A stretch of 64,000 nucleotides of DNA, taken from assembly GCA_973895155.1 (NCBI GenBank), contig OZ316891.1, positions 22,711,884 to 22,775,883 on the forward strand. The letters are read 5' to 3'. The position numbers and the translations under genes were made by a program. The notes below the pieces were generated by a model. That model was not told where the DNA came from. It saw only the letters and a program-made list of their open reading frames with translations, and made no database searches. The stretch comes from Marsupella aquatica. Lineage: Eukaryota > Plantae > Marchantiophyta. Shown piece after piece: positions 5,879 to 39,565 of the stretch. Positions within the stretch are counted from its first letter, which is position 1. Each line of letters begins with the position of its first letter.

Positions 5879-5950
5879 CTGTGTTGCTTCAGAATTACTT
5901 TATTACACATCCTTCCCCTCACTAATGTCTATGCAAACAATTCACATTAC

Positions 5951-11580: not shown

Positions 11581-12261
11581 TCACAGCCAAGATATGTGAT
11601 CTCTCACAGGAGTGCGCGAGGTAGGATCAATGGCATGGCGATGACAATAAAATATCCATCGATCAACACCATGTGCAGAGTGATCATAGATTTCTCTGTC
11701 ACAAGCATAACCCTCTGCTTGATGATCTTTCAGGCAATGATAGTGCCACATAGTGGGACACCTAGCACAGTGGACTATGTCAGTCCAGTAGTCATCATCA
11801 TGCTCACCACATGCCTTGCACCTATGAAGTGGGCAAGCTGTGGCATGAGCAGGCAAACACTCAAAACAGAAAAATCTCACACAAAAACGGTCTGGACATT
11901 TCCTAACATTTGCTGCAGCATCAACAGAGCCCTCATAGGACCCCAACTTCCCACACTGTGCACACTTAGCCTGCTTCTCCAAACAATCAGTGCACATCCA
12001 GTCTCCCTGGTGTGTTGACGGGAGGCCCACCCCTGGACAGTTGTTTTCTGCAGCAAGGTCAGACTCCGGGTTGAGGTGGAAATGCCTCATGCAAGGGCCC
12101 TCACAAATGACCAGGCCCCCACCATCGTCACAAATGGCACAACAATGAGCTGCCTTCTGGAAAATCTGACTTGCAGAGAAGTTAGTAGCATCTGCCCCAA
12201 GTACACCTGTGTTTCTCACCTCTGTCACACGCTTTTTGGCTTGAATTTTAGGCCGTGCCAT
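11581..12261 (-). CDS. Stand-alone EDM2-type composite PHD-finger protein (E1 cargo)
   Basis: 226-aa intact ORF: CAICDDGG.L..CEGPC.R.FH, WxCxxC, CxxC..LG, CPLHxCxxC, CxRCP..WH..CL, YC..H.ID....TPVRDHI, as in the PHD region of Arabidopsis EDM2 (recalled). Confidence 0.88.
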   Translation of the reverse strand: MARPKIQAKKRVTEVRNTGVLGADATNFSASQIFQKAAHCCAICDDGGGLVICEGPCMRHFHLNPESDLAAENNCPGVGLPSTHQGDWMCTDCLEKQAKCAQCGKLGSYEGSVDAAANVRKCPDRFCVRFFCFECLPAHATACPLHRCKACGEHDDDYWTDIVHCARCPTMWHYHCLKDHQAEGYACDREIYDHSAHGVDRWIFYCHRHAIDPTSRTPVRDHISWL

Positions 12262-12272
12262 GCCTGCGCATG

Positions 12273-12416
12273 AGATAGACTCTACAATTTAGCAGACTGC
12301 ACAGAAAGTAATATATATTTAGCATTTAAGGTACAAAGGCATTTAGATAGACTCTACAATTTAGCAGACTGCACAGAAAGTAAAATATATTTAGCATTTA
12401 AGGTACAAAGGCATTT
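12273..12416. repeat. 72-bp tandem duplication just upstream of the PHD ORF
   Basis: AGATAGACTCTACAATTT...GGCATTT twice (12273-12344, 12345-12416), one mismatch. Confidence 0.95.
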
Positions 12417-13031
12417 GCTACTGCAATGAATTGGAATGGCCACACAAGGATGCAGAGCACACATACTTTTGGTATGTTGAGCCCACACACAAAACTGATC
12501 CCCTAATACAATTTCTCCACCAACACCTCAATTTTAATTGTGGCTATGATTCACCAAAGGAGATCTGCAACAACATTTCATGCATTTGAATCACATACAA
12601 TAGTCGTGACATGTAAAACAGGCATTCTTCGAAGAGGATTGGTATGAAGCAGTGTCATAAGGGTTGAAATTTATACATCCTAAATAGGTTATGATAGTGG
12701 CTGAGACAAATAAGTGAGGCATAAATCATTTTGCATATTATCACATGGCCCATTAATTCATTCAACGTTGCAATGTTCACCAGGTTAAAGCAGTCATGAA
12801 AGCAGTCTTTCAATAGAGACTTTTATGCGAGTTTGCTAGCCTCTTAAATTAGGATATTTTGCTTAGTACAGGCATAATAGGATATAAGTTATGTACTGTT
12901 GACCCTAAACCCTGGACCCAAAATTGCTCATACATCAAAATTTTAAGTAAATATCCTCTGTGTTGAAGTCAGAGTGTTAAGCTATAGGTCAATGGTATCT
13001 GGTCTGTGCATGCGGTGTGACAAGTGGTCCT

Positions 13032-13481
13032 CTAGAGCATGTGATCCAAACATGTGTAGACACCAAAGTCACCGGTGGTGGGGTCTGGGAGGGCAGGACA
13101 AGTGACATCACCAGGCACACTGCAGGATGGCGAGTGGTTCCAGATGATACATTGTGCTCTGTGCAAAAATCGGCATCCAAGAGAACGGTCATCCAATTCT
13201 GGGCCAGAAGCCCTACAGGCAGGACAGTCATATTGGCAACTGTGTACACACCCTTGGCACCTAATTTGTGGCGGGTCATGTACAAGAGACACAAATACCA
13301 AGGATGTCGGGAAGGGTACTGAAGCAGGTAGAGGCCGGCTGTAGTTGTTCCTAGAAACAACAGGGTACTCAAAGTACCATGCAGACTGGGCTGGAAGGAT
13401 CCCAAGTCTGACATACTCAAGGCGCAACATCTCTGCCTTGCGTGCAAGTCGCACATGTTCAGCGTTGCGGGTCCTCACCAT
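13032..13481 (-). CDS. Cys/His-rich putative zinc-finger protein (PHD- or DC1-like), E1 cargo
   Basis: 149-aa ORF starting MVRTRN; CxxCxxxCxYxCxxC...CxFLHxxxC...YxCxxH pattern; same strand as other cargo, with a candidate splice acceptor upstream (~13611). Confidence 0.5.
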   Translation of the reverse strand: MVRTRNAEHVRLARKAEMLRLEYVRLGILPAQSAWYFEYPVVSRNNYSRPLPASVPFPTSLVFVSLVHDPPQIRCQGCVHSCQYDCPACRASGPELDDRSLGCRFLHRAQCIIWNHSPSCSVPGDVTCPALPDPTTGDFGVYTCLDHML

Positions 13482-14489
13482 AAGTGTTGCTTTCGTTGTG
13501 ATGTCCTCTGTTCACGTCCTTTGATGAGCAAGGTGAGCAGGAGGTCGACTTGCCTCGCCAACAGCAACCACCTAAACTAATCAGTTCCCACTCATTGTCT
13601 TGGTTCCAACTACAGGTCATAGTATACACATAGCATGAAACGTGCATAGTACATATTTGATTCTGAGTTTATGAGTTTCCTAAGACAAAGAGCTTGGTGA
13701 TAAACCCATATTCTCGATGGACATGTATATCAATCATATTAAACTCCTGTTTTTTCATCCAGAAAGACCGAAAGTCTCACCTTGCAGGTTGCAGCAGAGA
13801 GAAAATTCACTGGTTGTCGTGTTGTGCAAGTGAACCTCCACTGATGCCCCGGTGTAGCCCCTCAGATGCAGGTGACACTTACCAACTCCCAAGTTGCCTG
13901 GTCTAACAGAAAATGCTTATATCTTCAGAACTTTATAGAGCAAGTACATGATCACATACTTCTGGATCTATTCATATTTGGAACTCTTGCCAACTACAAC
14001 TCCCATTATGCACAAGCTCACATCAATAGAGAAAGATACAGAATGCATACTTACTATGGCTCTAAGCACCTTCACTACCTTGTTGAACCCAGTCCTGAAG
14101 TCTTTTCAGCGTGTTTGTTGTGCTGTCTCCTTTGGCACCCAACACCTTAGTCCTTGATGTAACAGAATGCGATTTTACAAGTTAGATGCTTTGGAACCTT
14201 CTATGGTCTTAGCTGAATTGATGTCATCGTAAGTGGTGAAAGACAAGGAAGACGAAAGCTGGTTGAAGAGCTGTGGACAACACACTAGCATGAAGTGCTT
14301 CAACCAATCCACTGCCAAACGGAACTCTTACACAGTCACATTCTTTTAGTAAACAAAAACTCAGTCAAACTTCAGAATCAAAGTACAGACTCTGAAGGAC
14401 CAAAGGAGGATGTTGTGAGTTTCTCTGTTGTTTAATGTGTTACCCTTCTAGTTTCGAAGTTAGCAAATGCTGAATAATGTGTCTACCAG

Positions 14490-14832
14490 ATCTTCAAAAA
14501 GAAGCCCACCACAATTAAGAACTTCGGTATCTGGGTCCACGTATCAGAGTCGTACAGGTTATCACAACATGTACAAGGAATATTGTGATACCACAAGAAA
14601 CGGAGCTGCAGAGCAGATGTATGATGAGATGGCTTCTTGTCATAGAGTTTGGTTCCCTTGCATCCAGATCATGAAGACTACGACAGTCCCTGTCTCTCTG
14701 TGCAAGCGAGAAAGTACCAAGCAGTTCCATGATTCAAAGATCAAGTTCCCCTTGACGTACTGCAAGATTCAACCTCCATTGCGAAAGCTAAAGAAGACTT
14801 ACAAGGCCACCAAGCCCAACACAATTGTTTGA
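14490..14832 (+). pseudogene. RPL18A: Captured 3' exon of 60S ribosomal protein L18a (eL20)
   Basis: After CAG acceptor: [16 protein letters not shown], +1 frameshift, then [60 protein letters not shown]...KLK.TYKA.KPN. Confidence 0.93.
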
Positions 14833-16022
14833 GTAGTGCGGGTGCAGGTTCCCAATTTTGAGACAATTTGGCTCATTTTATGTCCCGAGGGAATCCTGGA
14901 GTTTATGTATTGAGTTTCTAGGTGAAGATGCTTAATATAAGGAAATTCAATTATCACTTCGTTCCCAACTTCTATTAATTGAAAATACACAAGCTGGAAG
15001 CAAGAAGACAAGCCACAATCTAGCATCTTAGCCAAACACAATCGTCCCGACAAAGCAAAACTCAGTTGGACAGAAGTCACTCGGATCCACAAAAAATTGA
15101 AGATTCACCTCCAAGCCGGAGGCTGATCACTTCAGTACAGCAGCTTCTAGACTGAACAAACTCTACTCAGCCCCACAGAAACACAAATGTTAAGGCTCCA
15201 AGTCAGAGCTCACAAACAGAAACTCAGATAAATAACATTCAAAATCTGTCCAGGTTTGTGCAAAGTGTACATATTCATTCTTCTGGAATGAACACGCAAT
15301 GCATACATCACCTAGACACAGTCATTATAAATCATTGGGCGATTGGGGACCACTAAGCAGGTGTGTTCCTATTTCGAGGCTACAGGAAAGGATAGAGTGA
15401 CACCAAACTCAAGAGTACACCAAAAGAAAAACAGCAAGAACCAAAGTCAATCATGTGTGGATAAACTGCACATGGGAAGTTCCCCTGAAGAAGCATCAGT
15501 TGCTAACATTGTCACCCGAACCACACCTAGTTTATGACCTCAATGTCTTCAGCCTCAATACCTAATCCTCAGCCCCCTGGTGCTTCCGTGTTTGTTCTGA
15601 AAATTTCTGTGATGAAATAATTATTCAATACATTCAATAGGAGTTCAGACAATCTGAAGAGGACTTTGGACTTGAATGGGGGACAGCGTGGCCATATAGT
15701 TATCCTTGTGGCCTTCAGCTACGTGTCTCACGCTGAATTTCACTTTCCAGTTTCGAGAGTTGTGAAGGTCTAGTTTTAGTAACTTCCTCCTGACTCGACT
15801 TGGGAGCATTCTCTGTATTATTTTGCTAGCTTGTAGTTAGCTTTGACTCCTTTCAGCTTAGTTGACGACCCTCTTGAGATATTAACAATTAGAACAAACA
15901 CAAGTTGTCAAGACAGATTCCACCGGAGCAAAAAGTCCAAAACCAGGTGAATGAAAACCTAAGGAGAGTCCATAAGAACGAAAGTAGGAAGGCAGGCGCA
16001 CGGGCCACCGAGAAAAGTAAAG

Positions 16023-16183
16023 GATGCATGTCATTAGTGGGGAGGGATCTTAGCAAAAGCAGGGGAAAGCAAGGGAACTTGCGGCTAAAATCAGCTGAAA
16101 GATGCATGTGATTAGTGGGAGGGATCTTAGCAAAAACAGGGGAAAGCAAGGGAACTTGCGGCTAAAATCAGCTGAAAGATGCA
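16023..16183. repeat. ~78-bp tandem duplication
   Basis: GATGCATG..GGGATCTTAGCAAAA.CAGGGGAAAGCAAGGGAACTTGCGGCTAAAATCAGCTGAAA twice. Confidence 0.9.
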
Positions 16184-17487
16184 CAGTTCCTAGAAATGTA
16201 GTGAACCTTAAGGTCGTCTGTTCACCCCCCCACCCCACCGCCGGGCACAAGGCATGTTCTGATACAGGGAGGAGCAAAACAATCATGTCAAGCAAGAAGT
16301 GTGGAGAGACCAATCTGTAAGCAAAAATAGGGGAGAACATACATACATCAGCAGCAACAGGAAACAAGAAAGATGAGTTTGGAAAGCATCTTAGGGTCGG
16401 GGACATCACTGCAACACCGGGACTTAGGATATGACTTGTTCTTAATCTGTTGATAGCATCCGGTAGGCCGGCAACCCATGGCAAAAGGGCAGAGCAGCAA
16501 TAACAGTTTGAATCTGACGGATGAAGCTCCAGGCAAATGAGCTCCAGGCGATTGGGTGCATGATTGAGCAGGCGATTGTAACAGCAGGCACCAGGTAATT
16601 TAAAGGAAGCAACATTCGGCAATGGACCTAGGCAGCTCACAAATTTTGCTTAGCAGCGATGTCACCTAGACCCTAAACACGCAATGCATACATCACCTAG
16701 ACAACTATACTTGCAGTCACGAGGTGAGTCCGCGTCGATAGGGGATTGCAGCCTTACCTGTGCCGATGTAGCACCAAGCCGCCCTAACTGAAGCTGCATA
16801 GCAATCCGCAGCAATCGCTCAATGCAAAACAAGTCCCCGGTTGGCCTTGCAGCCCGATCATCCACCTTCAACCCTGCCACCAAGCAATGAGCTCTCCGCT
16901 GTTGCTCACCCTAAACCTTCAACACTCCCGCAAAGTTGTGTCTGCCCGCAAGATTGGGTGCGTGATTGATTCGGCAATTGTAACAACAGGCAACCGCAAT
17001 CGGTCGCAGGTCATGGATACACAAGCTCCAATGTGCTCCCTTTAGCTGAAACAATACCAGTTGTCGCTCACCACCAACACTTTCAGCAACAACACATATT
17101 TGTTGTAGTCCGCACCTTAAACCTTAGCCATGGGGTGGTCAATCAAGTTCCGCAATGCCTAAAACACCGACCACCTGACTTACATGAAATGTGCACACAG
17201 CTAAGCTCACCTGCAGCTCACGCCAACCACATTGAGACAACTGAAGTGAATACTGCCGTAGCTGAACTCGACTCCTCGCGACTCTTTCGCGCCTTCGTAG
17301 ACTGCCTTACTCAAGTTGTCATTTTTGTATATTGAATCCCTAAACAACCCAATAAGTAGACAATTCATGCACGTAGCTCCTTCAATGGTTGACAGTGAAT
17401 ATATTCAGAGTCAAAAGCAAAGCTTGGACATGTGACTATGCTAGACGTTTACACGGGGGAGGATCTAGTTCACTTATGAGACCGCAT

Positions 17488-17577
17488 CTCAAACAGCTCA
17501 ACTCTCTGTAACCGTAGCTCAAAGAGCTCAACTCTCAGTGACCCCAGCTCAAACAGGTCAACTCTCAGTGCCCGCAC
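17488..17577. repeat. 30-bp tandem repeat, 3 copies
   Basis: CTCAAA.AG.TCAACTCTC.GT... repeated at 30-bp spacing. Confidence 0.8.
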
Positions 17578-18879
17578 TTGAAACTCAATTTGCTGAAACT
17601 CAGAAGGTCAAAGTGACTATTGCATGAGTAAGAACACCCTTTACCTCACTGGTGCCGAAAGCTCTCACAGGGGCTGTCACATTTCTCAGAAGTACTCTGT
17701 CACTAAACAAGAAACATGTGAAACTTGACTCCAGCTCCGGCTCCAAGTAAACAAGCTGGACTGCCGCGACAAGTTCCTGGTTCCTAATCCTAGTTTGCAG
17801 CTGAACGTTGAAGCAACTCTCATAAAGCTTTTTATCCATTGGCAATCACTACCTTATCATTTCAGCCTTATTATCTCATTGTGCAAACCTGGATGTCACG
17901 GGGCATCTTGGGAGGTGAATGCAGCTAAGCAAAAGCTACAACATCTATTGCAAGCCGGTTCATGCAGATGGCAAGTTAAAGTCAAGCTTGAAATACACTT
18001 ACAGCCGGCCGAATGTCAATAGCGCTCACTGTAAAAGGTTGAGATGTTGTCAATGACGGTAGCGCATTTTCTTATCCCTTCCACCTCACCAGTTGTAGCC
18101 CACACTCATGTTTAGAAAAATTTGCGTTGGTGAAACTTGGCCGGAACCTGAGTCAAAAATAGCTTCACAGCACAAAGAAGTCAACCAAACTTGCAGCCGC
18201 GAGGTCACATAGCAAAGATAGGGGATTGCAGCCTTACATGGGCTGATGCAGCACCAAGCCGCTCAAACTGAAGCTGCGTAGTAATCCGTAGCAGTATGTG
18301 AAGCTGAGCAACAATCCCCCGCTATTGCAATGTGATGGCAACTCAATCTTCAACTCACTTCCAACCCAGCTCCACTTGAAAGCCTCCTAGTCGGACTGCA
18401 ATGTACATCCAAAGGCGATCAATGCAATGTCTCCAGGCCTGGAGTCCCACTTTGCAAGAACAGTCCAAATGCACACCAAACCGCAATGAGAAGCTCCTGG
18501 TTCTCGATCCCAGGTTGCAGCTGAACGTCAAATTGACTCTCCCAGCTTGAAGGAACAAGTGCCTCCTACAGTGCCTTGCGCAGTGGCAAACGCCTCCTGC
18601 AGTGCCTCCCACAGTGCCTATGATCAATGCTAAACACATACAATGGCTGAATGTTGCCTACGACTCACATTCTGTTTTGTCTATGCAACACCCTAAACTC
18701 GCTCTTCTTGCCTCCTACTACTCCCATTGCAGTCGGGATTGCAATTTGTCAATGCAGCTTCAGCCTTAGTGATCGACAAACTGCCCCCTTTTTTCCCTCG
18801 CAAAGAATGCGCGATCAGCTCCTCGTCCGCAAATCCAAAGGAATCCAAGGCGCAATGGGAGTTGGCGTGAAGGAATCCA

Positions 18880-18965
18880 TTAAACCCTAAACCTGGTTTA
18901 ATGTGCCCATATTTGTTTTCAACCGTCAGATCATCCTTTGATTAAGTTTACGACCGTCAGATCCT
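18880..18965 (-). promoter_or_regulatory. Putative E1 promoter region (telobox plus two ACCGTCAGATC motifs)
   Basis: AAACCCTAAAC at ~18882 and ACCGTCAGATC at ~18922 and ~18953, beside a CpG-retaining patch about 0.9 kb inside the right end. Confidence 0.35.
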
Positions 18966-21390
18966 TGCTTGATTAATTAAGGTAAGGACTGTCACAAGTT
19001 CTTATGCTCATTCCATGAGCATAGTGTGTGGGGTGCCATTATCAGATATGTCTAATTATAACATGTAGACATGCCAAGTACATGGAGGTTCCAGCTGCAT
19101 TCCCAGTTCTTGGTGATTTTGAACCTTTAATTAAAGGAATCTAGATGGAACAATGTGTGGAGGGGGTACATGACGGTATGTATGCATGGCATGGCGTGCA
19201 ATAAGTAAAAATAACCTGCCCTTGCATATGTGAGAGTTAGAGATAACCAAGGAGATAACTTCAAATGTACCCATTTAGACACAAAAATGAGTCCAATTAA
19301 TATTACATGCATGCCATTGTGGGACCCTAGCTAGTTGGGATTATTTTGTTATGTTGTAACACTTGTAAACTTGTGGCATACATATGTTGTAATTCAGTCT
19401 ACTCTAATGTAGAGTATATATTTGAGATCTGTTAGCATTGACATTGACCAAGGACCTTTACTTACCTTGTAGAGTTGCGTACTCACACAATATCCCGAGG
19501 GCATCTCCTTTAGTCCCATTGACAACTAAGAAAATTAGGATATATCCTAAATGGTATGTGTTGGGCGGGGTCAAATGTGGTTAGATTGTGGTGTTAAACC
19601 CTAAGGCTCTCTTACATATATAACGCTCTATTGTAGAGGGAGTCACTTATACAACTTCATTCTTGTTGGCTGAACTTAGTTATAGTTGCAACTTCCCCAA
19701 TAGTTATAGAAATGACTTCCCAAGAATTCTCCAAAACTCAGTCCACAACTTGTAACTATAATGACACCCAAAACCTAGGAGTCACAAATTTTGCAAGGTC
19801 TCATTAGAGTCACTTAAGGCAGGGTCTCAGAATGGGCCGGTTTCTTCTAGTGCTTACATGCTTGAGGTGTAACTTGATTTGTAGCTCCCTAACCAAAAAG
19901 AAGTTCTTGTCATTTTGCAACCTGGCTATTGAGGGCTATGCTTCCAGGTTTTTGGGCCCACACTTCCTTTCTGTTATACATTTACACTTAGGTTACGACT
20001 GCAGCCATAGTCGAGCTAACTTTAGTTGCAAACTTAATAAGGTTAGCTGTGTTGCATACTACATACCCAAGTAGTTGTCACACCATTCTAGGTAGTGCTA
20101 GAGTGTATCGTACTATCTAGATCTGTATGTTTGGTATGTGTGCTATATGAGCCAATAAGGTTCCGTTAGGTTTGTGTGAGAGGGTAGTTCTCTCTTGTGA
20201 GGCATTCAAAGGTTATCTTTCAATGTTGAGCCTTGGAGAGAGAGGAGCTTGAGTGTGGCTACGGTGGTTGTGAGCTCCGCTTGTGTAACGTGGATTCCTT
20301 GAGTAGTGCAAGGTGCGTTGGCTTGACATACGTGTATGATCGGATCGGTGCGGTATCGATGGGGTATTGTTGACCGGGATCGTTATGCCGATTGTATTAA
20401 GATTACATTGAAAGATCAGATGCGAACTCTGTTGTGCGGACTGTGCAAATAGAAGTTTGTTTCGTGGCAATTGAGTTGGCGACGGCTCGTGGAAATTGTT
20501 TGAAGCTGTTGCGTGCATGGATCGTATTGAATAGATCATTAGTATTCAATAACTAGCGGGTCAGCAAGCCCCGATACATGAGGAGAACTTGCAAGTGTTA
20601 CAATTTTGAGTGCCAGATTTGGTGCATAATGACAAGTGAGAGGTCACCCATCCCAAAGCTATTCCTCCCCCACACACTTAACTATGTGGTTCTTAAGTGC
20701 TCTTGTGTGCACACACTCCTTTCCACTTTGATGTTAATAGAATGAGCACTTAGGCATTTTATACACATTTTGGTTTGTTTAGATTGCCATTTTGGGCCAA
20801 ATTATAAGCTCTTTCAGGGTTTTTGAGGTTTTTGAATCCACCTAAATGCATGGATTGAACCAATTGTGCATGGATCCTTAGCTACGACATTGAACATTGA
20901 GAGGCCTATTATGAAGGCCCCACATTGAACATTATGAACATTGTTTGATTGATGTATGATCACTATTGATGTGGAGAGTTCTTGTGGATCTCTTCTTGTT
21001 GATTGCATCCTCTCCACATATGCTTCTTGTTTATGCGCCATGTTAGTTTGGCATGGGCGCTTGATTCTATAGGAGTGATCCGGGTTTGCAACCGGACATT
21101 CTAGTTGTGCTACGTATTTCTCTCCTGGTGATGTTAGAGTGATGCCCAACACACCATGGTGAGTGTTTGTGTTGCTGACAGGGACAGATTGCCCTTAGGG
21201 TTAGCATATAGATTAGATTAGGTTGGTCACCACGGATTCTTCTGATGTTGCTGGGTTACCCGATGGACGACGGACTGGTTTCACTCAGAGTGGGGCGCAT
21301 TTTTGGCCAGCGGCATTGGTGGCAGTCAGCAATGCAGCTTCAGACAGTGATTCCGACAAGGACTCAATTACCAGTTCTCCTCGTCATCAG

Positions 21391-22470: not shown

Positions 22471-23229
22471 GAGGAGGATCCCATACACATGATCAGGGAA
22501 GAGGAGGAGGAGGTAGAGGTGGTGGATGTGGTCGTGGCATGCCACATGCAGGGAGACAAGGAGGTGACGTTGCCCCTGCTGTAACCATAGATCCAAAGGA
22601 TGCTAAGATTGCTCAATTGGAGCAATAGCTAGCTGCCATGGCTAGTTCCCACGTGAGACCTACTTTTGGTGATGGGGCATCTACATCCTATGGACCTTCC
22701 ACATCCCATGGTCCTTCCACATCTTATGGAGTTGATGGAGACCTTGCCACCATGGGATTCATGTGTGGCACTGCAAATATTGATGCATCAACAGCTTTGA
22801 CATGTGGGGCAGCCAAAGCTCTTGAGCCCCAAGGAGCAATAGTGAAGCTAGATCCACAGAGGGGGGATGCACGTTGGTAGACAAAGCTTCCTCAGTCTTT
22901 TACAATGTCAGAGACAGTTCAGACTGCCTCTATGAACCCGGTTCGGATAAACCCTGGCATGGGTAAGTTGGCAGAATCAGGTAGTGATGCAGCAGGGATG
23001 ACAGGTACCCTGCAGTTGGGGGCGGCTACTGCCATAGTACGCACCCCATTATTTTCAGTGATAGACATGCTAAACTTGGGAGTTGGTCTTGCATAAGTGT
23101 TCAGATTGGTAGCTACACTCTGTGAGGACACTCCAGTGGTTGCTTCCCATGCAGAAGCAGCTTGTAGTGTTGAAGCAGGGAAGACCATGCCACCTACTAC
23201 TACTAGTGAGACATGGCATGTAGCAGCAG

Positions 23230-27600: not shown

Positions 27601-27904
27601 CTGGAATATGAAAATAGAACATGAACCTGACAACTCCATATATCTACTGAATCAAATTAATTTGCAACAGACATTTTAACACACACATCAGCATGCAGTC
27701 TGGCCCCAGTCCTAGATCACGCATAATGCTGACATTATGCTCTATGTTCCGCTTTCGGGCCTCCTCATAAGCATTCACAGGATGTGACAATTCAACCCCT
27801 GCAATCTTCCTTTCACAGGCTGCATTCACCAACTGCACAAATGGGCAAAACATTAGTCTGATTTCATATATAGTCCATACATGTAGTCCATCTATGGACT
27901 TCAC
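24650..27904 (-). pseudogene. E2 multi-exon TnpA/Tnp1-like gene, degenerate
   Basis: Exons paralogous to E1 TnpA (NAYEEARKRNI; RRSSRLS.V..V.MAE; terminal exon VAEGEV...FH.....F.RV.V..V..DVALPF); frameshifts and stops around 26100-26600. Confidence 0.65.
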
Positions 27905-29007
27905 ACACCTAAAACCTATTCACTGCTTAGGCCTACCCTTTCTTGCAGATCCCTCTACATCTCTGCCTCATTTGGGACTAGTACTTGGTCCTGGATTTGC
28001 TCTAGTCCTACAGGCTTTAGCCAATTCAATGTGTAATTTGGCATTGTTTTCCATTGTAGCATGGAAATCAACATCTGTGTAATCACCTAACACCCTTGTG
28101 GACCTGGATTCTTTGTGGAGGATTGTTCTCCATGCTATCCCCTTCTCATTGGGGTGGAAGAAAACCTGCTCCACTTGCTTTGGGAAAATGTAATCCATTT
28201 TCTTGGACACACCCAGTTCTCAATGGAAATTCACCTGCCAAAGACCAGACTCAGAATACCTCATACTGGCAGAGGATTTAGGAGTCCATGATGGATCTGC
28301 CCATTTCCCTTTGAAAAGAATCACCTCTTTCCTCAAGCTGCCGTAATTCAGTACTAAGATATCTGTCAAGGCCCCTACATACTGTACAGATTCTTCTCTA
28401 GTTGTGCCAGACCTGTCCACCCGCTTCTCAGTGAATGTCGAAGCCATCCCATAGTCAAAAGTGTTGAATGCACCAGAATCACAATCACTCAAACACCCCA
28501 AGGATGGAATAGTCCTCCAGTGATGCCCATAGGCTCTGCATGCCCTATACAGTCGTGCCTTCAAACTAGGTGGTGTGGAGTATGCAGATAGTAATGAGCA
28601 CTCAGACTCTGTCTCAAAATTATGGGTATTGACTAATGTTTGAAACCATTCCCTGAAAGGTGGCAGTTCTTGGCAGTCAAGGGGAAATTCCACTGGTTTT
28701 CTTCGATTGGCAGGCTTCCTCATCCATTCCTTCCGGAAATCCACTCTTCGTTTGGTAACAGTCTCATTGGTAGCATCATATATCCTACATGGCAACAACA
28801 ACACTCAAGACATTAGTGCATGATCCACCATGAATATACAAACACAATGGGGCAGCATAATTATAATCCATATGGTACAGGGTTTACATACCTGTACCAT
28901 GGAGCCACTATCTCTTCATTCTCCAATATATAATGATGCATGGCCATCATTTCAGACCAATTCAAAGTTATCTCCTTTGCAGCCCCTTCCAAGACAATGC
29001 CTGCAAC

Positions 29008-29446
29008 TGTTGAGCATAGACGACGATCGCAACGGCAAGCCCATGAACCATCCAACGCACAATAGTCGACACAAGAGATACGTGGTTCACCTCCTTGAGG
29101 CTACGTCCACGGGAACACACAAGAGAGCTTTACTGAACTCTAAGCCCGTCGGCTATACCGAGTCTCCATAGTGTAAGCTCTCCCTATCTCTCAAGTGGCT
29201 CCATAACAATGAGCCTTGGTTCTACCTCTCCAAGCACACATGCCTCTTATGATATAGTGTGCAACTTAGTTGTACCTAACCACATAGTTGTACCTAATCA
29301 CGTAGTTGTACCTAACCACATAGTTGTACCTAATCACGTAGTTGTACCTAACCACATAGTTGTACCTAATCACGTAGTTGTACCAACCCACGTTGTTGTA
29401 CCAACCACGTCATACCTAACCTAGACGTAAGAGTAAGTACCCAACA
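29008..29446 (-). repeat. Copia 3' LTR (439 bp, 8 copies of an 18-bp unit)
   Basis: TGTTGAGC...CCCAACA; GTTGTACCTAAYCACRTA tandem array; near-identical to 35099-35519. Confidence 0.95.
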
Positions 29447-29460
29447 ATCTTCCCCTTGAC
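29447..29460 (-). promoter_or_regulatory. Polypurine tract
   Basis: Minus strand GTCAAGGGGAAGAT directly before the 3' LTR. Confidence 0.85.
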
Positions 29461-29637
29461 TCTGATCTAGGGGAGAGTAATACTGCCAATGTATATGATC
29501 CCTCAGCGGGAAGTTCTGGACAGAAACCAAACCGGTTTCCCTCTCTAACTAGAGCAAACCAGAACTAAGCCGTAGCCTAATACATAGGAATGAGAAAGAG
29601 CATATATCAGTAATTACAATGAATGTTTAAGAAAACT

Positions 29638-32600
29638 CTACTTGTGATGCAATTGCAAAACCTGCAATACGTCACGGTGTCTAGAGAAACTCTCCAAAGG
29701 AATCACTTTGGTAAATGCGTCAGCCGGGTTGAGTTTACCATCAATCTTGACTAGCTCAAACAAATTATCAGACACAGCCTACCTGATAAAATGGTACCTG
29801 ACGTCAATGTGCTTCACTCTGCTGTCCATCACCTGGTTCACAGCAAGGTGGAGCGCACTTTGACTATCACAATGGAGCTTCACATTCCCCTGTGGCAATC
29901 CCATTTCAGTGATAAGTCTATCCAACCAAATCGCTTCCTTTGCTGCTTCCGCAGCTGCAACATACTCCGCTTCTGTAGTAGACTGAGCAATACACTTCTG
30001 CAAAGTAGACCTCCAACTTATGCATCCACCGCCAAGTGTGAACACGTATCTTGTTGTTGATCTCCTTCGGTCCAAATCTTGTCCATAGTCAGAATCTACA
30101 TAGCCAATCAATGATCTAGCATTCTTTGCATTCGCATCAAATAAAAGACCATGATCCACGGTACCCTTCAAGTACCTGATAATCCACTTCACTGCTTCCC
30201 AGTGTACCTTCCCTGGATTCGACATGTACCTGCTCACCTTGCCCATAGCCATGGCAAGATCAGGTCTAGTGCAAGTCATCAAATACATGAGACTCCCCAC
30301 TGCCTTGTCATATGGAACCTTTGACATCAACCCCTTCTCTGTGTCATCCGTAGGACAGAACGCTGATGATAACTTGAAGTGTGGAGCCAACGGGGTACTT
30401 ACTGGCTTGCTATTCTCCATGTTGAACCTTGCAATTACCTTCCTCGCATAACTGCTCTGCGTCAACCATAGCTTGCCAGCCTCCAAGTCCCTAGTGATCT
30501 CCATACCCAAAATCCTCTTAGCTGGCCCTAAGTCCTTCATCTTAAACTCTGCACTAAGCAGTGCCTTGAGCTTAACAATCTCAGACCTATCCTTGGCTGC
30601 AATTAGCATGTCATCCACATAAAGTACTAAAACAATGAACCCAAACACAACATTCTTCACCGGTTTCAAATACACACAAGGGTCAAATACACTTCTGTGA
30701 AAACCTTGTGACCGAATCCAATCGTCAAACCGCTTGTTCTACTGTCTTGGTGACTGCTTCAACCCATACAAGGATTTCAGCAATCTGCAAACCAATTCCT
30801 CCTGTCCTCTATTCACAAAACCTAGCGGTTGTCTCATGAAGATCACCTCTTCCAATGTGCCATAGAGGAAAGTTGTGACAACATCCATCTGATCTAGGAG
30901 CAGACCAAACATTACAACAAGTACACACAATAGTCGTATTGTAGAGTACTTAGCAACTGGTGAGAAGACCTCATTATAATCCACACCTTTCTCTTGTGTG
31001 AATCCCTTTGCTACCAATCTAGCCTTGTAGACCTTCGATCCACCTCCTATGGAATTATCCTTCAGCTTGTAAATCCACTTGCTATCCACCACTTGCTGAC
31101 CCTTAGGCAGCTTAACAAACTCCCAAGTTTTGTTGTCCTTTAGTGACTGCATCTCCGTTTGCATTGCTGCAGTCCACTTCTGCTTCTCCTTTGAAGCACT
31201 TGCCTCATGAAATGAAGAAGGTTCTCCTTCTTCCAAAATTAACGCATCACCCTCATCATCAGCTGTAAAATCATCCTCTTGCAGTTGAGATGAATCAACC
31301 CACTGTCCATACCTTGATGGAGCGCGTACAGTGCGACCAGATGTTCTTCTAGCCGATGACTCCGGTTGATCTGCGTGTGCTGGTACAATTTGAAGCTCAA
31401 CAGCATCCACTTGCTGCTCACCAGCATCAACAAACTCCTCTGGTTCCTCTGGCACAGGAACCAGCTCCATAATTGGAGCAACTCCTTCTCTCCGGTCATG
31501 CACCTCATAACCAATCTCCCCCTCAACGAGATCCGGGATAGGAGATTTTCCTTTGTTAGTACGGGAGACCTGAGTATTCTCCCCCTCCTTCAATAATCTG
31601 GATTCATTGAAGGAAACATCCCTACTGACAACGAGCTTACAGGCAATAGGATCCCATAGCCTATAGGCTTTCACACCACTCTGGTACCCAAGAAAAACAC
31701 ATTTCTTGGAGGTAGGATCCAACTTGGTCCTATTCTGCTTTGGTGTGAGAGCATATGCATCACTTCCAAAAATTACCAAGCCATGATAGTCTGCTTGCCG
31801 CTTATAGCGCATCTCAAACGGCGTTTTGAAATTGATAGCACTAGAAGGAGAAAGATTTACCAAATAAGCTGCGGTATTGACAGCTTCTGCCCAAAATTCT
31901 TGTGGTAAACCTGATTGGCTCAACATACTCCGTGACCGCTCCAACAGTGTCCGATTGAGCCTCTCAGCGACACCATTCTACTGCGGAGTATAAACTGTGG
32001 TGAGATGGCGAGTTATCCCCTGTTCTGAACAGTACTCTTCAAATTCCATTGAAGTGTACTCCCCGCCGTTGTCTGACCTCAGACTCTTCACCCTTGTATC
32101 CAAACACTTGATCGTGTTTCCAGTCTGATTCTCCACCTGGGCCTTCCACTTCTTAAAAATGGACAAGACATCAGACTTATGCGTCATGAAATAAATCCAC
32201 ACAAATCTTGAGTAATCATCAATAAATGATACATAGTACAACTTTCTAGAGTGTGAGGGAGTCGGGGATGGACCCCACACGTCACTATGTATGTACTCAA
32301 GAACCGCTTTGGAACGATGAGTTCCAACACCAAAAGCACGACGATGCTGCTTTCCAAGAATGCAATGCTCACAAAACTCTAATTTACAAGATTGCAAATC
32401 AGAAATGAGTCCATTCTTCCGTAAGATAGCCAAACCCTTCTCACTCATGTGGCCTAGCCGTGAATGCCACAGTTGAGTCATCTCCTCGTGAGACTTGGTT
32501 ACATTGGCCTCTCCACATACAGTATTGCCCTGTAACACATACAAATTCTTTTGTCTACTCCCCTTCAAAATCACTGTCTCTCCCGACCTGACTTGAAGTT

Positions 32601-33945
32601 CACCATCAATAACGCTCCATTGATGACCATTTGAATCCAACACACCGAGTGAAATCAGATTCTTACGCATGCCAGGTACATACCTGACTCCGGACACTGT
32701 GCGCACAGCGCCATCAAACATTTGAATCTTCACAGACCCAATTCCTTCAATTTGACAGGAGTGATCATTTCCCATCAGAACTGAACCGTTTGAAACAGAG
32801 TAAGAACTGAAAAACTCACGAATGTAACAAATATGAAAAGAGCAAGCACAATCAAGAATCCACACATCATCTGCTCTCCTAGATGACGTGCACAGGGCAT
32901 ACCCCCGACTTCATAAAACATACTCATCATTGAGTAAATCAGCTTCTCCATCAGCCCTAGCCACATTTGCCGATGAAGTTTCCGCTGCCTTTCCCTTACA
33001 GTCTCGCTTGAAGTGTCCAACTTGGTTGCACTTCCAACATGTCACCTGCCTCCTCTGAGGGGATTTACCCTTGGACTTAGATCTGGATTTAGATCTAAAC
33101 TGGGTTCTACGGTCCCCAGTTGGTCGCTGCATACTCCTCCCACGGTTAACATTGAGGGCAGCACCAGATGATGAAGGCTGTGACGTGATGTGCATCTTCT
33201 GCTGAAGATCATCACTAAGCAGAGAACTTACCACGTCATTGTATGAAATGGTATCCCTATCACGATGCAACAACACTCGTGATAGGGACTGGTAAGATGG
33301 AGGCAATGAACTAAGAAGCTGCAGAGCCTTCGTCTCATCATTCAAAGTCTCCCCAAGGTTTTCCAAGTCAACGACCATGTCGTTGAAAGCATCCACATGG
33401 TCTTGCAACTTCGTACCAGATTCCTTCATCCTGAAACTCATCAGTTTGTAAGAAGTGTAGAGCCGGTTCGACAACTCCTTGCGGTGATACTTGCTCTGCA
33501 ATTCCGCAAACAAGGACATGCAATCCTTATGTGCACCCAACTGCTTGATGATGGGAGGCATGAGATAGAGTGTAACACACCACACTCCTTGCTCCTGCAT
33601 GCGGTCCCATTGTTTCTCATCAACATCGTCTTCACGAGGGCTCAGCAGTTGGCCCATCCCTGACGCATAAAGCACTCCCTTCACTTGCTTCTCCCATAGC
33701 AAGTAGTCAGAGCGCCCATCATACTTTGTCACTTCATACTTGGGTCCCCCAAGCTTGAAAGTCCCCATCTTCTTCTTTACCGTGAGCTCCGGTAGTAGTA
33801 CTGCTTCCTCCATCACACGCCGCACCGGTGATGGTATCGGTGTCACGTGCTCTTCCTCCTGCTCCTCTCTCTGCCCCTGAAACCTCCGCGGTGATCCTCG
33901 TGCTTCAAGTTCCACATCTTCGAAAAACTCCTCCGAATCACTCAT
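29638..33945 (-). pseudogene. Copia gag-pol polyprotein, single frame with four in-frame stops
   Basis: Gag with CWKCNQVGHFKRDC; WILDCACSFH protease; WHSRLGH..CEHC and HSDVWGP / LRSDNGGEY integrase; YKARLVAKGF, LYGLKQSPR, LYVDDML RT; GYVDSD..TEAEY..DSQSA RNase H. Stops at 32911, 31978, 30739 and 29779. Confidence 0.95.
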
Positions 33946-35084
33946 ATGAGAAAGTCACAAAAAATGTTGTTTTTCACAACTTCTCAAAAAACTCAAAACT
34001 CAACACCGCCGCGTAGCCCACAAAGCTAGGAGTCCAATACTGAAAACCGAAATCAAAATCGAAATTTGACGGAAAAGTTATTCAAATTTCGGTCGAGGTG
34101 GGTAAAATCTTGGGAAACTCCCCCGTTTTGACCACCTCAGGGAATAACCGAAATACCAAGTACAACCCGTTGTCGGAATTGCGATGTGATTGGTGCGCTG
34201 CATTGCCAACTTCAATGGCTACGACCTCGCCGAAAAATAACCAAAAAAGTTACCGTTCGGCGGATGAAATCTTTGTCGGACGGTCAAAAAATAGCTCTCT
34301 GGTTTTTTGGAATATTCTATGACCCTTGTACAGGCCCTGTGGGAATTTTGGAAGAACAATCGAGGGGCTGACATGTGTCCTCGAACCCCCAAAACCCCCT
34401 ACCACCCTTCGTCATCGAAATCTGGTCGCGCGCGCAGAAAATACACACGGCAGAATGTACCCCTCGACACCAAACGCAAGATATCTCACTCGGGTTTTGA
34501 CAAAATCAAGATCCGATTTCAGATTTGGAAACTAGACTCCGAGGCGATGAAGATCGATATAAGAAGCACCCAAAACGAGGAAAGAACGAGGGAGAAAAAA
34601 ATTGGTAAAGATGACAGATTTCTCTCAATTGCCATAGCCAATTTCGAATCAGTTTTTCAAAGAGAAAAAAATGGTACCTTGTCAACAACGAATGTTGATC
34701 AATTGCACTTGGTGCCGTCACCAAGTCCAACAAGGTAATTGATTTTGCTTAGCCTTCCTCTTTGCATCAAAGAGCCAATCCCGGACTCAAAAACAATCGT
34801 CTTGCCTCAATCTCTCCGTTGAGTCAAAACACTTGACGCTTCTCCCTCCGAGTCGATTGCCAACTTTCTTCACAAAATCCAGAACAACGAAAACTTAGAT
34901 CTCTCTGCACCACGAGCTCCGTTCAACGATTTCTTCACACCGTTAGAAAGCTCTTGCCCTGATCTATCCGTTAAGCCCATAAACTCCAAGTTCCATGCGA
35001 TGGAACTCTGGAAAATCCACCAACACTCAACGCTGGAAAACCGTCATGAAATCCCGTCACGAACACACGTCACCTCCCAAGCAT

Positions 35085-35096
35085 GCTCTGATACCA
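35085..35096 (-). promoter_or_regulatory. Primer binding site (tRNA-iMet)
   Basis: Minus strand TGGTATCAGAGC, 2 nt after the 5' LTR. Confidence 0.95.
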
Positions 35097-35098
35097 AT

Positions 35099-35519
35099 TG
35101 TTGAGCATAGACGACGATCGCAACGGCAAGCCCATGAACCATCCAACGCACAATAGTCGACACAAGAGATACGTGGTTCACCTCCTTGAGGCTACGTCCA
35201 CGGGAACACACAAGAGAGCTTTACTGAACTCTAAGCCCGTCGGCTATACCGAGTCTCCACAGTGTAAGCTCTCCCTATCTCTCAAGTGGCTCCATAACAA
35301 TGAGCCTTGGTTCTACCTCTCCAAGCACACATGCCTCTTATGATATAGTGTGCAACTTAGTTGTACCTAACCACATAGTTGTACCTAATCACGTAGTTGT
35401 ACCTAACCACATAGTTGTACCTAATCACGTAGTTGTACCTAACCACGTAGTTGTACCAACCCACGTTGTTGTACCAACCACGTCATACCTAACCTAGACG
35501 TAAGAGTAAATACCCAACA
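35099..35519 (-). repeat. Copia 5' LTR (421 bp, 7 copies of the 18-bp unit)
   Basis: Matches the 3' LTR except two visible substitutions and one 18-bp unit. Confidence 0.95.
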
Positions 35520-38500
35520 GCAACGCCAGCATCCTCCTCCAACTCCCAGGTTCGTTTTCCCTCTCCCTTAGCATCAATCATGTATTCAGAAAGGAATCCC
35601 AAAGACTCATCTAATACATAGCCTTCAGCCATAGAAGCCTCTGGACGTGCCTTGTTTTGTACATAACCCTTCAATACCTTCAGGTTCCTCTCTATTGGGT
35701 ACGTCCATCTGCCTGTAACTGGGCCACACAAGTCTAATTCCTCCACTAGGTGAATCATTAAATGAGTCATGACATCAAAGAAGCTTGGTGGAAAATGGAT
35801 TTCCACAATGCAGAGAGTGAATGCAACATCCATCATCAAATTCTCATACATTGAAGGGTCCCACACCTTTGTACATATCTGGCGATAGATATTGCTCATC
35901 CCAGCTATGGCCAAGCAAACCCCTTCATCAAGTAATCCCATTGTTGCCAGAGGGAGAATCTGTTGCATGAGTTGGTGGAAATCATGTGATTTCAACACAG
36001 AGAGTTTCTTGGATTTTGTAACACACTTTGCCAAAGAACTTGAAAAACCAGTGGACCCTTTCAAGGTCAATAACACCTCCAAGAACCTTGTTCTTTCCTT
36101 CTTGCTCAGACAATATGGGGCTGGGGGCATCAACAATTTGTCATTGTTACGCTTGGGAGCTGGATTGGGTACAAGCCATAGGTGTTGGCGCACCTGTAAG
36201 AGCTTCAGGTCTTCTCGCACAGAAGGAGTGTCCTTGGTCCCAATGATAGTGTGCACAATGTTGTGTGCAAGATTCTTCTCATAGTGCATGGGATCTAGAC
36301 AATGGTTAATGAGTAGTTCCTGCAGTGGACACACAATTCAGAAATTAGGGCATTGAATACAACAATTACAAAATCTGGGCTATAGGAAGTAAACACATTT
36401 CAAAGTCATATGAAGAGATTGCAGAAATTCATTGTAGTAGTATGGAGTCTTACGTTCCAATAGGGCAACTTGTACAGACCAGTAGCCCTCTTCACTCCAT
36501 GCACCTTTATGGGGCAGCTCTCATCCTCAACCTTGGTTCCTCCCTTCTTCAAATATTCTGTTGTCTCGTCTTCCCACTTCTTTCTATCAGAGCTTGACAT
36601 TCTACACGGTGCAGGTCGGCTCTCAATTGCACCATCAAAGTATTGTGCACTGTCTGGTCTACGAAAAAGATGCCTTGCTGCTAACCATCGACGGTGGCCA
36701 TTGTACTCTAATTTCTGCAAGTGCTTAGAACCACGTGCCACACATTTTGGCCCACAGATGACACATCCTTTGTATCCAGCGTGTTGTTGTCCAGATATTA
36801 AACCATATGCAGGGTAATCATTGATTGTCCACAATAGCACAACCCTTAGGTTGAAGTGTTGAGACATTCAATCCTGGGCGTGGCAATTTGTCAAAGCAGG
36901 GCACTCCTTTCGTCCACAACAGCTCCAGCTCCTCATAGAATGGGCCCAATATTATGTCCAGTTGTTCCTCTGTTACTGAATCAAGTCCTAGAATCAGCAT
37001 AGCTAGCATGACAAAGAACTTCTTGGTGGTAAGCCAAGGAGGTAAATTGTAATTCAACAACAAGATTGGCCAGGTAGACCAAGCTATGGAATTATTCCCA
37101 AAGGGATTCACCCCATCAAGTGCCAACCCAAATCGCACATTCCTTGGTTCAGCTGCAAATTTCCAATCAATATTTGTATCCACATGCTTCCAAGCCTTGG
37201 AATCTGCTGCATGCCAAACCATGTTGTCTGTGCTTCTATTCTCATGATGCCAAGTCATGAGTTTAGATGTACCAGTAGTGGCATACAATCTCTTCAACCT
37301 GGGAATTACAGGGAAATACCGCACCACCTTCCTTGCCTATAATGAATTCCCCACTCTTCATCTTCGGCTGCTGACACACTGAACAGTTTTCTAACTTGGC
37401 AGACTCACCCCTAAAGAGCATGCAACCTTTCTCACAGACAGGGATTCTCTCATAATCCAAGCCAAGCTTTCTCAATAGATGCTTTGCAGCATATAAGTTC
37501 TTGGGCAGATTATGCTCTGCAGGCATACCATGCTCCCCCATCAAAGCCAACAATGCATTCACTCCTTTGTTTGAGAATCCATGGCCATGACAGATGTTGA
37601 GCAGAAGCAACATGAATGACACAACATCTATTTTGCTGCCTGCGAACAAAGGTTGCATTGATGCATCTAAAGATAACTATGCAGGATCAGTCTCCACAGG
37701 AGTTTCAGAGGTTTCAAGGGGGTTTACAGGATGGGCACCTCCTTCACTCTCATCATCCCCAAGTACAAAATCCAAGTCAAAACGGTCCTGATCATCTAGT
37801 TCATGCTCAGGGGATTCTTCACTGGTTCTCAGCAACGTTTCTTCCAGTAGAGCCCTGATATGTTCTTCGACATCTATAGTTGGATGTTCTTGAACATCCA
37901 CAGTTGGATACTCTGGAACATCTACAAATAAATGTTCTTCAACATCTAGAGTTGGCTGTTGTGCATAGGTTGCCTGCTGAAGGTTTGCTACCCTCAATGC
38001 CTCAGGGCCATGTTGTGACATGTAGTCAACACCCCACTCTTCATCAGAAGAGTCCTGTCCCTCTCCCACCCACACTCGACATGCAGGATACCGACCATGT
38101 TTAATAAGGTGCAGTCTAGCAGTATTCCGATTAGTCCTATAATTCCCTTTGCAATTCACACAAGGGCAGTACATCTTATGGTCCCCACTCTTGTGGCAGG
38201 CCTTTTGTTCTCAAACCCACAAAGCATCATCACAATGTTGTACTCTAGCTGGATGGAAGAGCGGCAACTTTGGAGTTCTACCCACACCTAACCTATTCTG
38301 TGGCAATTGTGCCATGCTAGCTTGATTGAAATTGTATTCAAACTCTGATTTTCAAACTCAATCAGTGTGACATGCATACAAAATTGGGCCTACCATCACA
38401 GTTGTACAACCGATGCCAACCACAGTCCAATTGCTCAAACCCACAGAGCCCAGTTTCTCAAATCCACTGTAGTGGGGCACCTTCTCCTTCTTGCATACAA

Positions 38501-38905
38501 ATAGAGCATCACAGACAGTGTCATCAGAATGATACTATGAACGTAAATCTCTGTGCCTTCATCATTTCCAGTATTTATGAATGTGAGCAGACAGGTCTGG
38601 AATGAGTGACGTTTGTGACACCAGTGAAAATTTTACAAGTGAAGTTTAGACATCAACAGTGACAGGTCTCACATTCAAAGCACATGCATGAAAATCGGAA
38701 TCCTACCCTGGTTCCATATAGTAAAGTTGATTTCTCAAAATTAATTGCCTCAATCCGCAATGCAGTGTCGTAGAGTGTGTATACATGAGGAGTTCATCAA
38801 ACTGCATATAAATAGTCCACATGTTTTAGCACTCTGAAAATTGTTTAAGTCCATGTGAAACCATCAAAAACATCTATCTCAAGTTTGTGTTCTATCCAGC
38901 CTCAA

Positions 38906-39565
38906 TCAAATCCAAGAAATGTGGCTCCTGGTAGGAGTGCCTAGTGTAGGATCAATGTCATGGTTAGGACAGTAAAACATCCCCTTCTTGGGCTGCCCAT
39001 GCGCTAAGTGATCCCAAATTGTTTGATCATGGGCAAATCCCCTTTGCTGGATAAACTGCAGGCAGTCCTTGTGCCATGCCTTAGGACACCTCATGCACTG
39101 AACCAAAAAGCCATTAGCCCCATCATTGGGCCCCTGTCCACAAGTGTGACAAATATGGAGTCCACATGATGCTGTGCCAGGAACCAAACACTGCCGACAG
39201 TAAAACCGGGCACAGAGAGGGTCTGGACATTTTCTTACCTCTTCACCAATTTTTCCAGACACATGGCACTTAAAGCAAGAATGTTCCTCATTCTTGCAGT
39301 CAACACAAAGCCATTCTCCAACATGGCCATCAGCCAGGGATATAGTTGGGCATAGCCATTGCTGACCCAAAGGACAGGAAACATTCTTATGGAAATGTCG
39401 GTGGCAAGGCCCATCACAAACAATGAGATCCCCTCCCTCATCACAAATTGCACATACATGTGGGCTAAATTGGTTAATCTCAATGTCTGAATATAAGGAC
39501 AATTGAGGTGCTTGAGAGGATTCACCTCTGCAATGATTCATGGCCTTCTGCTTATTGCGAGCCAT
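38906..39565 (-). CDS. Stand-alone EDM2-type composite PHD-finger protein (E2 cargo)
   Basis: Intact ORF from ATG 39565 (MARNKQKA): CAICDEGGDLIVCDGPC.RHFH, WLCVDC, VRKCPD..C.RFYC..CL, C.LH.C..C, C.RCPKAWH..CL, FYC..H.IDP...TP.R.HISW; collinear with 11581-12261. Confidence 0.88.
   Translation of the reverse strand: MARNKQKAMNHCRGESSQAPQLSLYSDIEINQFSPHVCAICDEGGDLIVCDGPCHRHFHKNVSCPLGQQWLCPTISLADGHVGEWLCVDCKNEEHSCFKCHVSGKIGEEVRKCPDPLCARFYCRQCLVPGTASCGLHICHTCGQGPNDGANGFLVQCMRCPKAWHKDCLQFIQQRGFAHDQTIWDHLAHGQPKKGMFYCPNHDIDPTLGTPTRSHISWI

Follow-up and report, generated by a model that had tools for sequence, protein, structure and literature searches.

Why do CACTA transposons carry, upstream of their transposase genes, a gene that resembles part of the plant chromatin protein EDM2, and is this gene maintained by selection or a host fragment on its way to decay? 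The question is raised by a window of 64,000 nucleotides from the liverwort Marsupella aquatica (assembly GCA_973895155.1, contig OZ316891.1, positions 22,711,884 to 22,775,883, forward strand), in which we identified two open reading frames (ORFs) encoding PHD proteins:

11581..12261, minus strand: stand-alone EDM2-type PHD ORF of CACTA element E1, protein P0001, 226 amino acids (aa); ORF translation, Pfam, homology
38906..39565, minus strand: second stand-alone EDM2-type PHD ORF, protein P0002, 219 aa; ORF translation, Pfam, homology, fold model

The PHD gene is under purifying selection and is not passively carried along. We propose that it represents a CACTA-borne clade in which an EDM2-type PHD module is combined with a histone H3-like start, that this clade goes back to a single capture from the host EDM2 family, and that its product would act as a chromatin adaptor or decoy keeping the element transcribable, a reading to which we assign a probability of about 0.45. 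Judged by sequence, a single capture from a host EDM2-family gene is likely, and the proposal as a whole is supported by the location of the PHD genes inside CACTA units bounded by terminal inverted repeats (TIRs) as well as by duplications of the target site (TSDs), and by other chromatin-type cargo (BRCT and SET) adjoining them.

Both ORFs run uninterrupted from ATG to stop on the minus strand (12261-11581 and 39565-38906), and each lies on the strand of the transposase gene TnpD and 5' of a TnpD gene, as an earlier note made from the DNA letters had described. Its statement that the two ORFs are collinear also holds, since P0001 and P0002 align end to end with 41% identity over the full length (E 2e-58). 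The zinc ligands were said to be kept despite heavy divergence, and 20/22 Cys of P0002 are indeed Cys in P0001 too, compared with 73/195 identical residues at other positions; self-blastn detects no likeness between the two ORFs at the DNA level. The description of the genes as intronless stands for the coding part and not for the leader: 2-3 bases ahead of the ATG, both PHD ORFs have an AG that resembles the splice acceptor of a putative intron in the 5' untranslated region, and the PHD, BRCT and TnpD genes share such an AG immediately ahead of each ATG.

The top named non-element matches of the PHD ORFs are EDM2 or EDM2-like plant proteins, and the match runs through the C-terminal YCxxHxI...TPxRxH tail, beyond residue 166 of 219, where the best sequence match in the Protein Data Bank (PDB), NSD3 (E 1e-9), ends. 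While the PDB sequence search returned NSD proteins only, and P0002 scores above and P0001 below the cut-off of the NSD-type PHD families of Pfam, the C-terminal tail supports the EDM2-type module suggested by the earlier note. The 219-226 aa ORFs contain the PHD module only, with neither the N-terminal RFD-like nor the C-terminal ELP domain, and PWWP and SET domains are likewise missing by Pfam. The VANC-type domain, DUF1985, is not in the PHD ORFs either, where PHD families alone were matched at E up to 0.01. Because the ORFs hold the PHD module without RFD-like and ELP domains, they are, by sequence, EDM2-derived and not EDM2. A fold model built from 30 sequences (predicted local distance difference test score, pLDDT, 85; residues 1-20 disordered) replaced a poor first model from 6 sequences (pLDDT 52), and the known structure that it matches best is that of the NSD2 PHD-C5HCH tandem (a middling Z of 5.5, root-mean-square deviation 2.5 over 75 residues); the top Foldseek matches are PZP domains with a template modelling score of ~0.2, a generic PHD likeness only.

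With an E limit of 0.001, a profile search of 1.84 billion representative sequences returned 745 proteins. Short element-type proteins account for 14 of the best 150 of these 745, and with six others they number 20, none of them longer than 245 aa, which bears out their stand-alone character. A search for longer relatives gave 4 matches among 2,095 candidates, namely one EDM2, two PHD zinc-finger proteins with the RFD of EDM2 and one hypothetical protein, and Pfam found no transposase fusion of the PHD module in these four; a metagenome scan gave one relative from 174 pattern matches, whose 1.5 kb contains no transposase. The longest contigs of one PHD homologue (P0014) and one TnpD homologue (P0193) are equal in length, which may hint that the two are linked. 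In trees built on 78, 34 and 26 of 161 proteins, the element-type proteins form one clade on a long branch, with 10-14 members depending on the tree (support 96, 100/99 and 100/100). Clade members are also marked by their residues: the PHD2 ligand His is replaced by Cys in 14/14 scorable element-type proteins versus 0/6 liverwort paralogues and 2/124 other scorable matches, an insert of ~20 residues is reduced to at most 8 residues in 12/13 of them versus 0/128 others (10-58 residues in hosts), and a conserved His pair near the C-terminus is new. The W-x-H motif is found in 10/10 element-type proteins, 5/6 liverwort EDM2-like paralogues lacking ELP, and 2/108 others. These ELP-less paralogues are the nearest named relatives and in one tree they join the clade with a support of 88/83, but the sister group varies with taxon choice, being the ELP-less paralogues in two trees and unresolved with long algal branches. 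The phylogeny with host EDM2 suggested by the earlier note thus yields a single clade, and by the approximately unbiased test other EDM2 proteins are also acceptable as its sister (p 0.07 and 0.15). P0008 (grass), P0035, P0037, P0054, P0059 and P0064 are short EDM2-like PHD proteins located near angiosperm EDM2 in the tree.

Since the module has diverged at a ligand, at the insert and at the acidic residue that precedes PHD1, the specificity of Arabidopsis EDM2 is not assumable for the element proteins. This divergence also bears on the idea that the module is a dominant-negative on host EDM2, occupying its sites or partners genome-wide without RFD and ELP. A reader module stripped of the other EDM2 domains would suit such a role, and host EDM2 has been reported to affect more than 2,000 transposon loci (PMC7529245), but the module shares just 29-36% identity with host EDM2-like proteins, its branch is long and its ligands have changed, and if EDM2 were blocked, heterochromatic introns would be read through less often, which could harm the element itself, so that we regard a dominant-negative role as improbable.

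Selection on the PHD gene is seen at two depths. Among six diverse members, 27/38 Cys/His columns are invariant versus 36/181 other sites (p 2e-9), and between the PHD genes of E1 and of the second element (E2), non-synonymous divergence (dN) is 0.56 and synonymous divergence (dS) 3.3, with four-fold sites near random (10/30), as for the transposases. In four public sequencing runs aligned to the second PHD ORF, 40 of 53 variant rows were covered, and those that differ among copies comprise 17 synonymous and 9 non-synonymous changes (omega 0.17-0.20, p <1e-4), or 16 and 8 without CpG sites, and omega is 0.40-0.48, below 0.5, if all 13 remaining rows are counted as non-synonymous; one frameshift is present among the rows listed, in one minor contig. 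Contig depth was similar over the PHD ORF and over TnpD, but it is not counted as evidence here, since depth does not give copy number and the runs had been retrieved by means of the PHD gene. The earlier claim of a selected cargo is thus borne out by ligand invariance and by omega, while the 14 changes unique to the window's second copy against all runs (5 synonymous, 9 non-synonymous) fit neutral drift since insertion. One argument of the earlier note fails, namely that the PHD gene is intact though its transposase is broken, for with five point lesions in ~3.75 kb the chance of none in 657 bp is P = 0.42. Passive capture, in which a recently acquired host fragment is in neutral decay, would account for this 5:9 ratio, which is indistinguishable from neutral; but with synonymous sites saturated between E1 and E2 and ligands conserved, omega near 0.2 among copies and conserved clade-specific features not found in hosts, it is already largely refuted and we give it almost no credence.

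The second part of the proposal concerns the N-terminus, where both proteins resemble histone H3:

12232..12258, minus strand: H3-like N-terminal tail of P0001, 5/9 residues as H3; alignment to H3 1-9, tail profile
39536..39562, minus strand: H3-like N-terminal tail of P0002, 5/9 residues as H3; alignment to H3 1-9, tail profile

With starts fixed by a rule on distance to the first Cys (n=17) and shuffles drawn from each protein's own first 15 residues, the 17 N-termini have 37 identities to H3 1-9 versus 16.3 +/- 3.7 in shuffles, and 23 versus 11.7 +/- 3.1 at positions 3-9 alone. The match reaches 7/9 in P0003 and 4-7/9 in the best seven tails; x-R-x-K directly follows Met in eight N-termini and occurs at an internal Met in a ninth. 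M[AT]RxK fits 2/143 ORF starts in the window, which are the two PHD genes, and the gap from tail to PHD1 varies between 33 and 49 residues while the H3 match stays at the N-terminus. When 177,635 PDB sequences were searched with a profile of nine tails and an E limit of 10, there was one match, and this was histone H3 (7uqj_G), at an E of 1.4 that is not significant and that makes it a lead; the P0003 tail alone gave no PDB match at E up to 10. We hold the odds to be slightly in favour of the tail being a functional H3 mimic.

In the proposed mechanism, splicing would join a 5' leader to the acceptor immediately ahead of the ATG of the PHD gene, and removal of Met would free Ala1-Arg2, like in H3. 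The PHD module would then bind H3 tails on the heterochromatin of the element as host EDM2 does, minus RFD and ELP, and the H3-like tail, which has K4 and in many cases K8/K9, would serve host H3 readers as a ligand or host H3 writers as a substrate, or would fold back into its own PHD as a switch. The outcome would be weaker silencing or more full-length transposase RNA. Host EDM2 has been reported to bind H3K9me2 chromatin and to suppress proximal polyadenylation with ASI1 and AIPP1 (PMC7529245, PMC10241880), it raises COPIA4 and lowers Mu1 transcripts in Arabidopsis (PMC3632883), and a bias of H3K27me3 towards DNA transposons has been described in land plants (10.1101/2024.09.22.614159).

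Several findings weigh against this proposal. EDM2 has been reported to repress the DNA transposon Mu1 in Arabidopsis and to raise H3K9me2 there (PMC3632883), therefore the direction of the PHD protein's effect is not fixed. The protein could even be a self-limiting control that recruits silencing or promotes early polyadenylation and so caps element activity, an idea that the action of EDM2 on Mu1 favours and that the AG ahead of the PHD, BRCT and TnpD ATGs may favour too, as it would permit switching by alternative splicing; but most of the chromatin genes known from transposons have been interpreted as counter-silencing (PMC12730594), and we consider self-limitation very improbable. The earlier note had held that a family with usually broken ORFs would speak against selected cargo, and among 20 element-type database proteins the whole module is present in 9 while 11 are truncated or frameshifted, a relative designated L001 being frameshifted as well; passive capture would predict this, although individual insertions of any transposon gene would be expected to decay. 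Genomic context is limited to both copies in the window and to the family to which the second belongs. Moreover, an acidic residue three places ahead of the first Cys is present in 0/17 element-type proteins versus 101/119 other matches, and because of this loss the histone pocket is changed.

As to the tail, the H3-like motif at a Met is missing in 6/17 N-termini and two more carry it two residues in; the nine profile tails were chosen for an x-R-x-K start (9/17) after the pattern had been seen; and the tails share ancestry, which makes the p-values from the shuffles too low. A MAR start is also found in several host EDM2-like proteins from seed-free plants and algae (8 of 19 shown), and positions 1-2 of the tail may therefore be inherited from host EDM2-like proteins. 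These M-A-R starts are found in P0019, P0020, P0022, P0023, P0024, P0027, P0038 and P0098, unlike the angiosperm proteins shown, and outside seed plants they possibly represent an old H3-like start. The tail is also Lys/Arg-rich, like a localisation signal, and the module might be a non-histone scaffold, with zinc fingers for another partner or nucleic acid and a basic N-terminus that serves as a DNA-binding arm or a nuclear localisation signal. The lost acidic residue, the new His pair near the C-terminus, the basic tail and its PDB match at E 1.4 only would all agree with a scaffold. A localisation signal requires no H3 register, whereas the H3 match is fixed at the N-terminus despite the 33-49 residue spacing and beats composition-matched shuffles at positions 3-9, and we therefore rate the scaffold as rather improbable.

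The proposed adaptor or decoy role has also to be seen in the context of the elements that carry the gene. E1 comprises the following features:

1233..19852, minus strand: CACTA element E1, 18.6 kb; TIR CACTAGAAGAA(T/A)CC, target duplication CTT/CTT; termini, shared subterminal GTCAC-type repeats
2088..5610, minus strand: TnpA-like exons of E1, boundaries approximate; Transposase_24 E 1.5e-4 at 3593-4246
5951..9682, minus strand: TnpD of E1, three open stretches, apparently intact; Transposase_21 E 2e-70, DUF4218 E 5e-28, DUF4216 E 6e-5
10116..10988, minus strand: tandem-BRCT ORF of E1, 290 aa, open; BRCT E 2.6e-13, two stretches
13032..13481, minus strand: Cys/His-rich ORF of E1, 149 aa, function unassigned; open frame

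The TIRs at 1233 and 19852 are of CACT(A/G) type with one mismatch in 14, and the 3-bp target duplication is accompanied by subterminal repeats at both ends; the Transposase_24 match (E 1.5e-4, 3593-4246) falls under the curated Pfam cut-off. From the 5' end, the gene order is Cys-rich ORF, PHD, tandem BRCT, TnpD and TnpA exons. The PHD gene does lie upstream of TnpD, as the earlier note had it, but the tandem-BRCT ORF (10988-10116) stands between them and would constitute a second cargo gene of chromatin or DNA-break type. The 149-aa Cys/His-rich ORF begins M-V-R-T-R and has no significant Pfam match.

The second PHD ORF belongs to a larger unit:

23601..61349, minus strand: composite CACTA unit of 37.7 kb, or 31.2 kb minus the copia; TIR CACTAG(T/A)AGAAAAC, TSD TAT/TAT; TIRs, TSD, subterminal repeats, flanks
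24713..27543, minus strand: TnpA-like exons of composite, approximate; 39% to E1 TnpA at 26139-26555
27971..38315, minus strand: second TnpD ("E2"), broken, split by copia; Pfam, comparison with E1 TnpD and other copies
29008..35519, minus strand: Ty1/copia long terminal repeat (LTR) retrotransposon inside second TnpD, 5-bp duplication GCAAC; Pfam, self-comparison
42093..42106, no strand assigned: internal TIR-like sequence; TIR match, no shared subterminal repeats, spanned by contigs of other runs
42109..45379, minus strand: third TnpD, more distant lineage, frameshifted; 34-46% to other TnpDs
45530..46345, minus strand: SET-domain ORF directly upstream of third TnpD; SET E 4.6e-6, above Pfam cut-off, Atlas 0.97 to streptophyte SET cluster

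The ends at 23601 and 61349 are paired because TAT stands on both sides, AAATGAC subterminal repeats occur at both ends (5 + 6 copies, none common to 42106) and the flanking DNA joins into a single gag-protease frame; their TIRs are of CACT(A/G) type with one mismatch in 14. The mobile unit is therefore the 37.7-kb composite, including the third TnpD and the SET ORF, and not a separate element E2 ending at 42106. Such an 18.5-kb element was rejected, its flanks being mismatched (TAT vs CAT) and its ends having no subterminal repeats in common, and the inner junction at 42106 is spanned by contigs from two other sequencing runs; the TIR-like sequence at 42093-42106 is probably a relic 5' end of the ancestral E2. 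The second PHD ORF is placed between the two TnpD genes of the composite, which belong to different lineages and were inserted as one unit. The E2 transposase is broken, as had been noted, by three in-frame stops, two frameshifts that are missing from other copies, and the copia insertion, while the composite, SET, BRCT and H3-like start were not in the earlier note. CACTA/EnSpm TnpD domains (Transposase_21, DUF4218) are present, the second TnpD is 46-49% identical to that of E1, and the TnpA of the composite is recognised by its 39% similarity to E1 TnpA only. The SET ORF gave no PDB match at E up to 1, and a Cys/His-bearing ORF-like stretch at 46410-46598 may be its upstream exon. The copia LTRs differ by 3 mismatches and one gap, and the copia frame has single stops.

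Around these genes, the composite splits a degraded gag-protease retroelement (21217-23600 and 61350-62500, plus strand), whose 3' part at 61688-62101 looks by eye like the start of a cytosine methyltransferase (LDLFGG) with no Pfam match. The 5' region of the composite (54551-61003) holds an array of ~570-bp tandem repeats followed by ~80-bp repeats, and a 211-aa open stretch on the plus strand opposite the third TnpD (48737-49369) is TnpA-like by eye, also with no Pfam match. Genes of the window are depleted in CG (0.14-0.50 of expected) and not in CHG (0.7-1.2).

The arrangement of the elements would favour a targeting module, in which the PHD protein would join the TnpA/TnpD complex and steer excision or insertion to marked chromatin, in the manner of the chromodomains of some gypsy elements. 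The PHD gene is just 5' of TnpD in both elements, the BRCT pair of E1 is a module of DNA-break type, E1 and the composite are embedded in a nest of other transposons, and reader domains of transposons have been discussed as tethers (10.1101/2021.11.30.470311). Nevertheless, the PHD protein has an ORF and a stop of its own, no fusion was found among the 20 element-type proteins (<=245 aa) or the 4 longer relatives, and targeting leaves the H3-like tail unexplained, which makes it unlikely in our view. Chromatin-type genes stand directly upstream of all three TnpD lineages in the window, and the adaptor or decoy proposed above might be one part of a modular toolkit that CACTA elements of seed-free plants carry upstream of the transposase, with an EDM2-type reader with H3 tail mimic, tandem BRCT and SET as its putative parts. 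In such a toolkit the PHD reader or decoy would absorb or redirect host K4/K9 writers and readers with its fake H3 tail, or gate its own binding, and EDM2 read-through would be hijacked; we regard this extension as possible but doubtful.

Only a few counter-silencing proteins have been described from plant transposons, and VANC, which has received most study, works via DNA sequence. EDM2 is the host protein that allows RNA polymerase to read through heterochromatin, and a selected stand-alone EDM2 reader module would, if the proposal is true, represent a second counter-silencing route that acts on histone marks. The H3-like tail makes this reading sharply testable with cheap peptides and hints that in seed-free plants the conserved MAR start of EDM2 proteins may have a role, and a 220-residue protein with a confident model may offer an easier route to the structure of an EDM2-type module.

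How do these genes compare with systems described before? EDM2 and its EDM2-like relatives, here Arabidopsis EDM2 (PMC7529245), XP_002976689 of Selaginella, and Mp2g00350 and the ELP-less Mp1g03210 of Marchantia, share the same full PHD module and TPxRxH tail at 29-36% identity, but the element proteins lack the RFD, acidic and ELP domains, have Cys for the PHD2 His, have lost the 20-residue insert, bear an H3-like tail and are transposon-encoded. The PHD fingers of NSD1/2/3 are similar in the Pfam NSD-type PHD models, the NSD3 sequence match and the NSD2 PHD-C5HCH fold, whereas the sequence match stops at residue 166 of 219 and the PHD ORF is without PWWP or SET. PHD and chromo domains on transposon proteins, as described in 10.1101/2021.11.30.470311, are likewise reader domains recruited by transposons, but those are fused, while the element PHD is stand-alone and EDM2-derived; the main text of that paper, as distinct from its supplementary table, has no mention of CACTA or EnSpm. 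Viral histone mimics such as NS1 of influenza H3N2 (H3K4-like) and ORF8 of SARS-CoV-2 (PMC11738798) also present a short H3-tail match on a parasite protein, but the PHD tail, known here from sequence, forms the true N-terminus of a protein that is encoded by a plant DNA transposon and that bears a PHD reader as well. In the titles and abstract starts of the literature searched, with Repbase and subscription journals outside the scope, no CACTA-borne EDM2-type PHD gene or plant transposon H3 mimic was found, so that, while transposon-borne chromatin genes are known, a CACTA-borne EDM2-type PHD with an H3-like start appears new in that literature. The closest functional parallels are the chromatin modifiers of DNA transposons, which include VANC of VANDAL MuDRs, SET in Phytophthora HarbingerS and MuDR, and TET/JBP in fungal EnSpm and other DNA transposons (PMC12730594): like these, the PHD gene is a separate gene in a DNA transposon that can be read as counter-silencing, and unlike them, it encodes a histone reader from a host heterochromatin RNA-processing pathway, lacks a catalytic domain and does not resemble them by Pfam.

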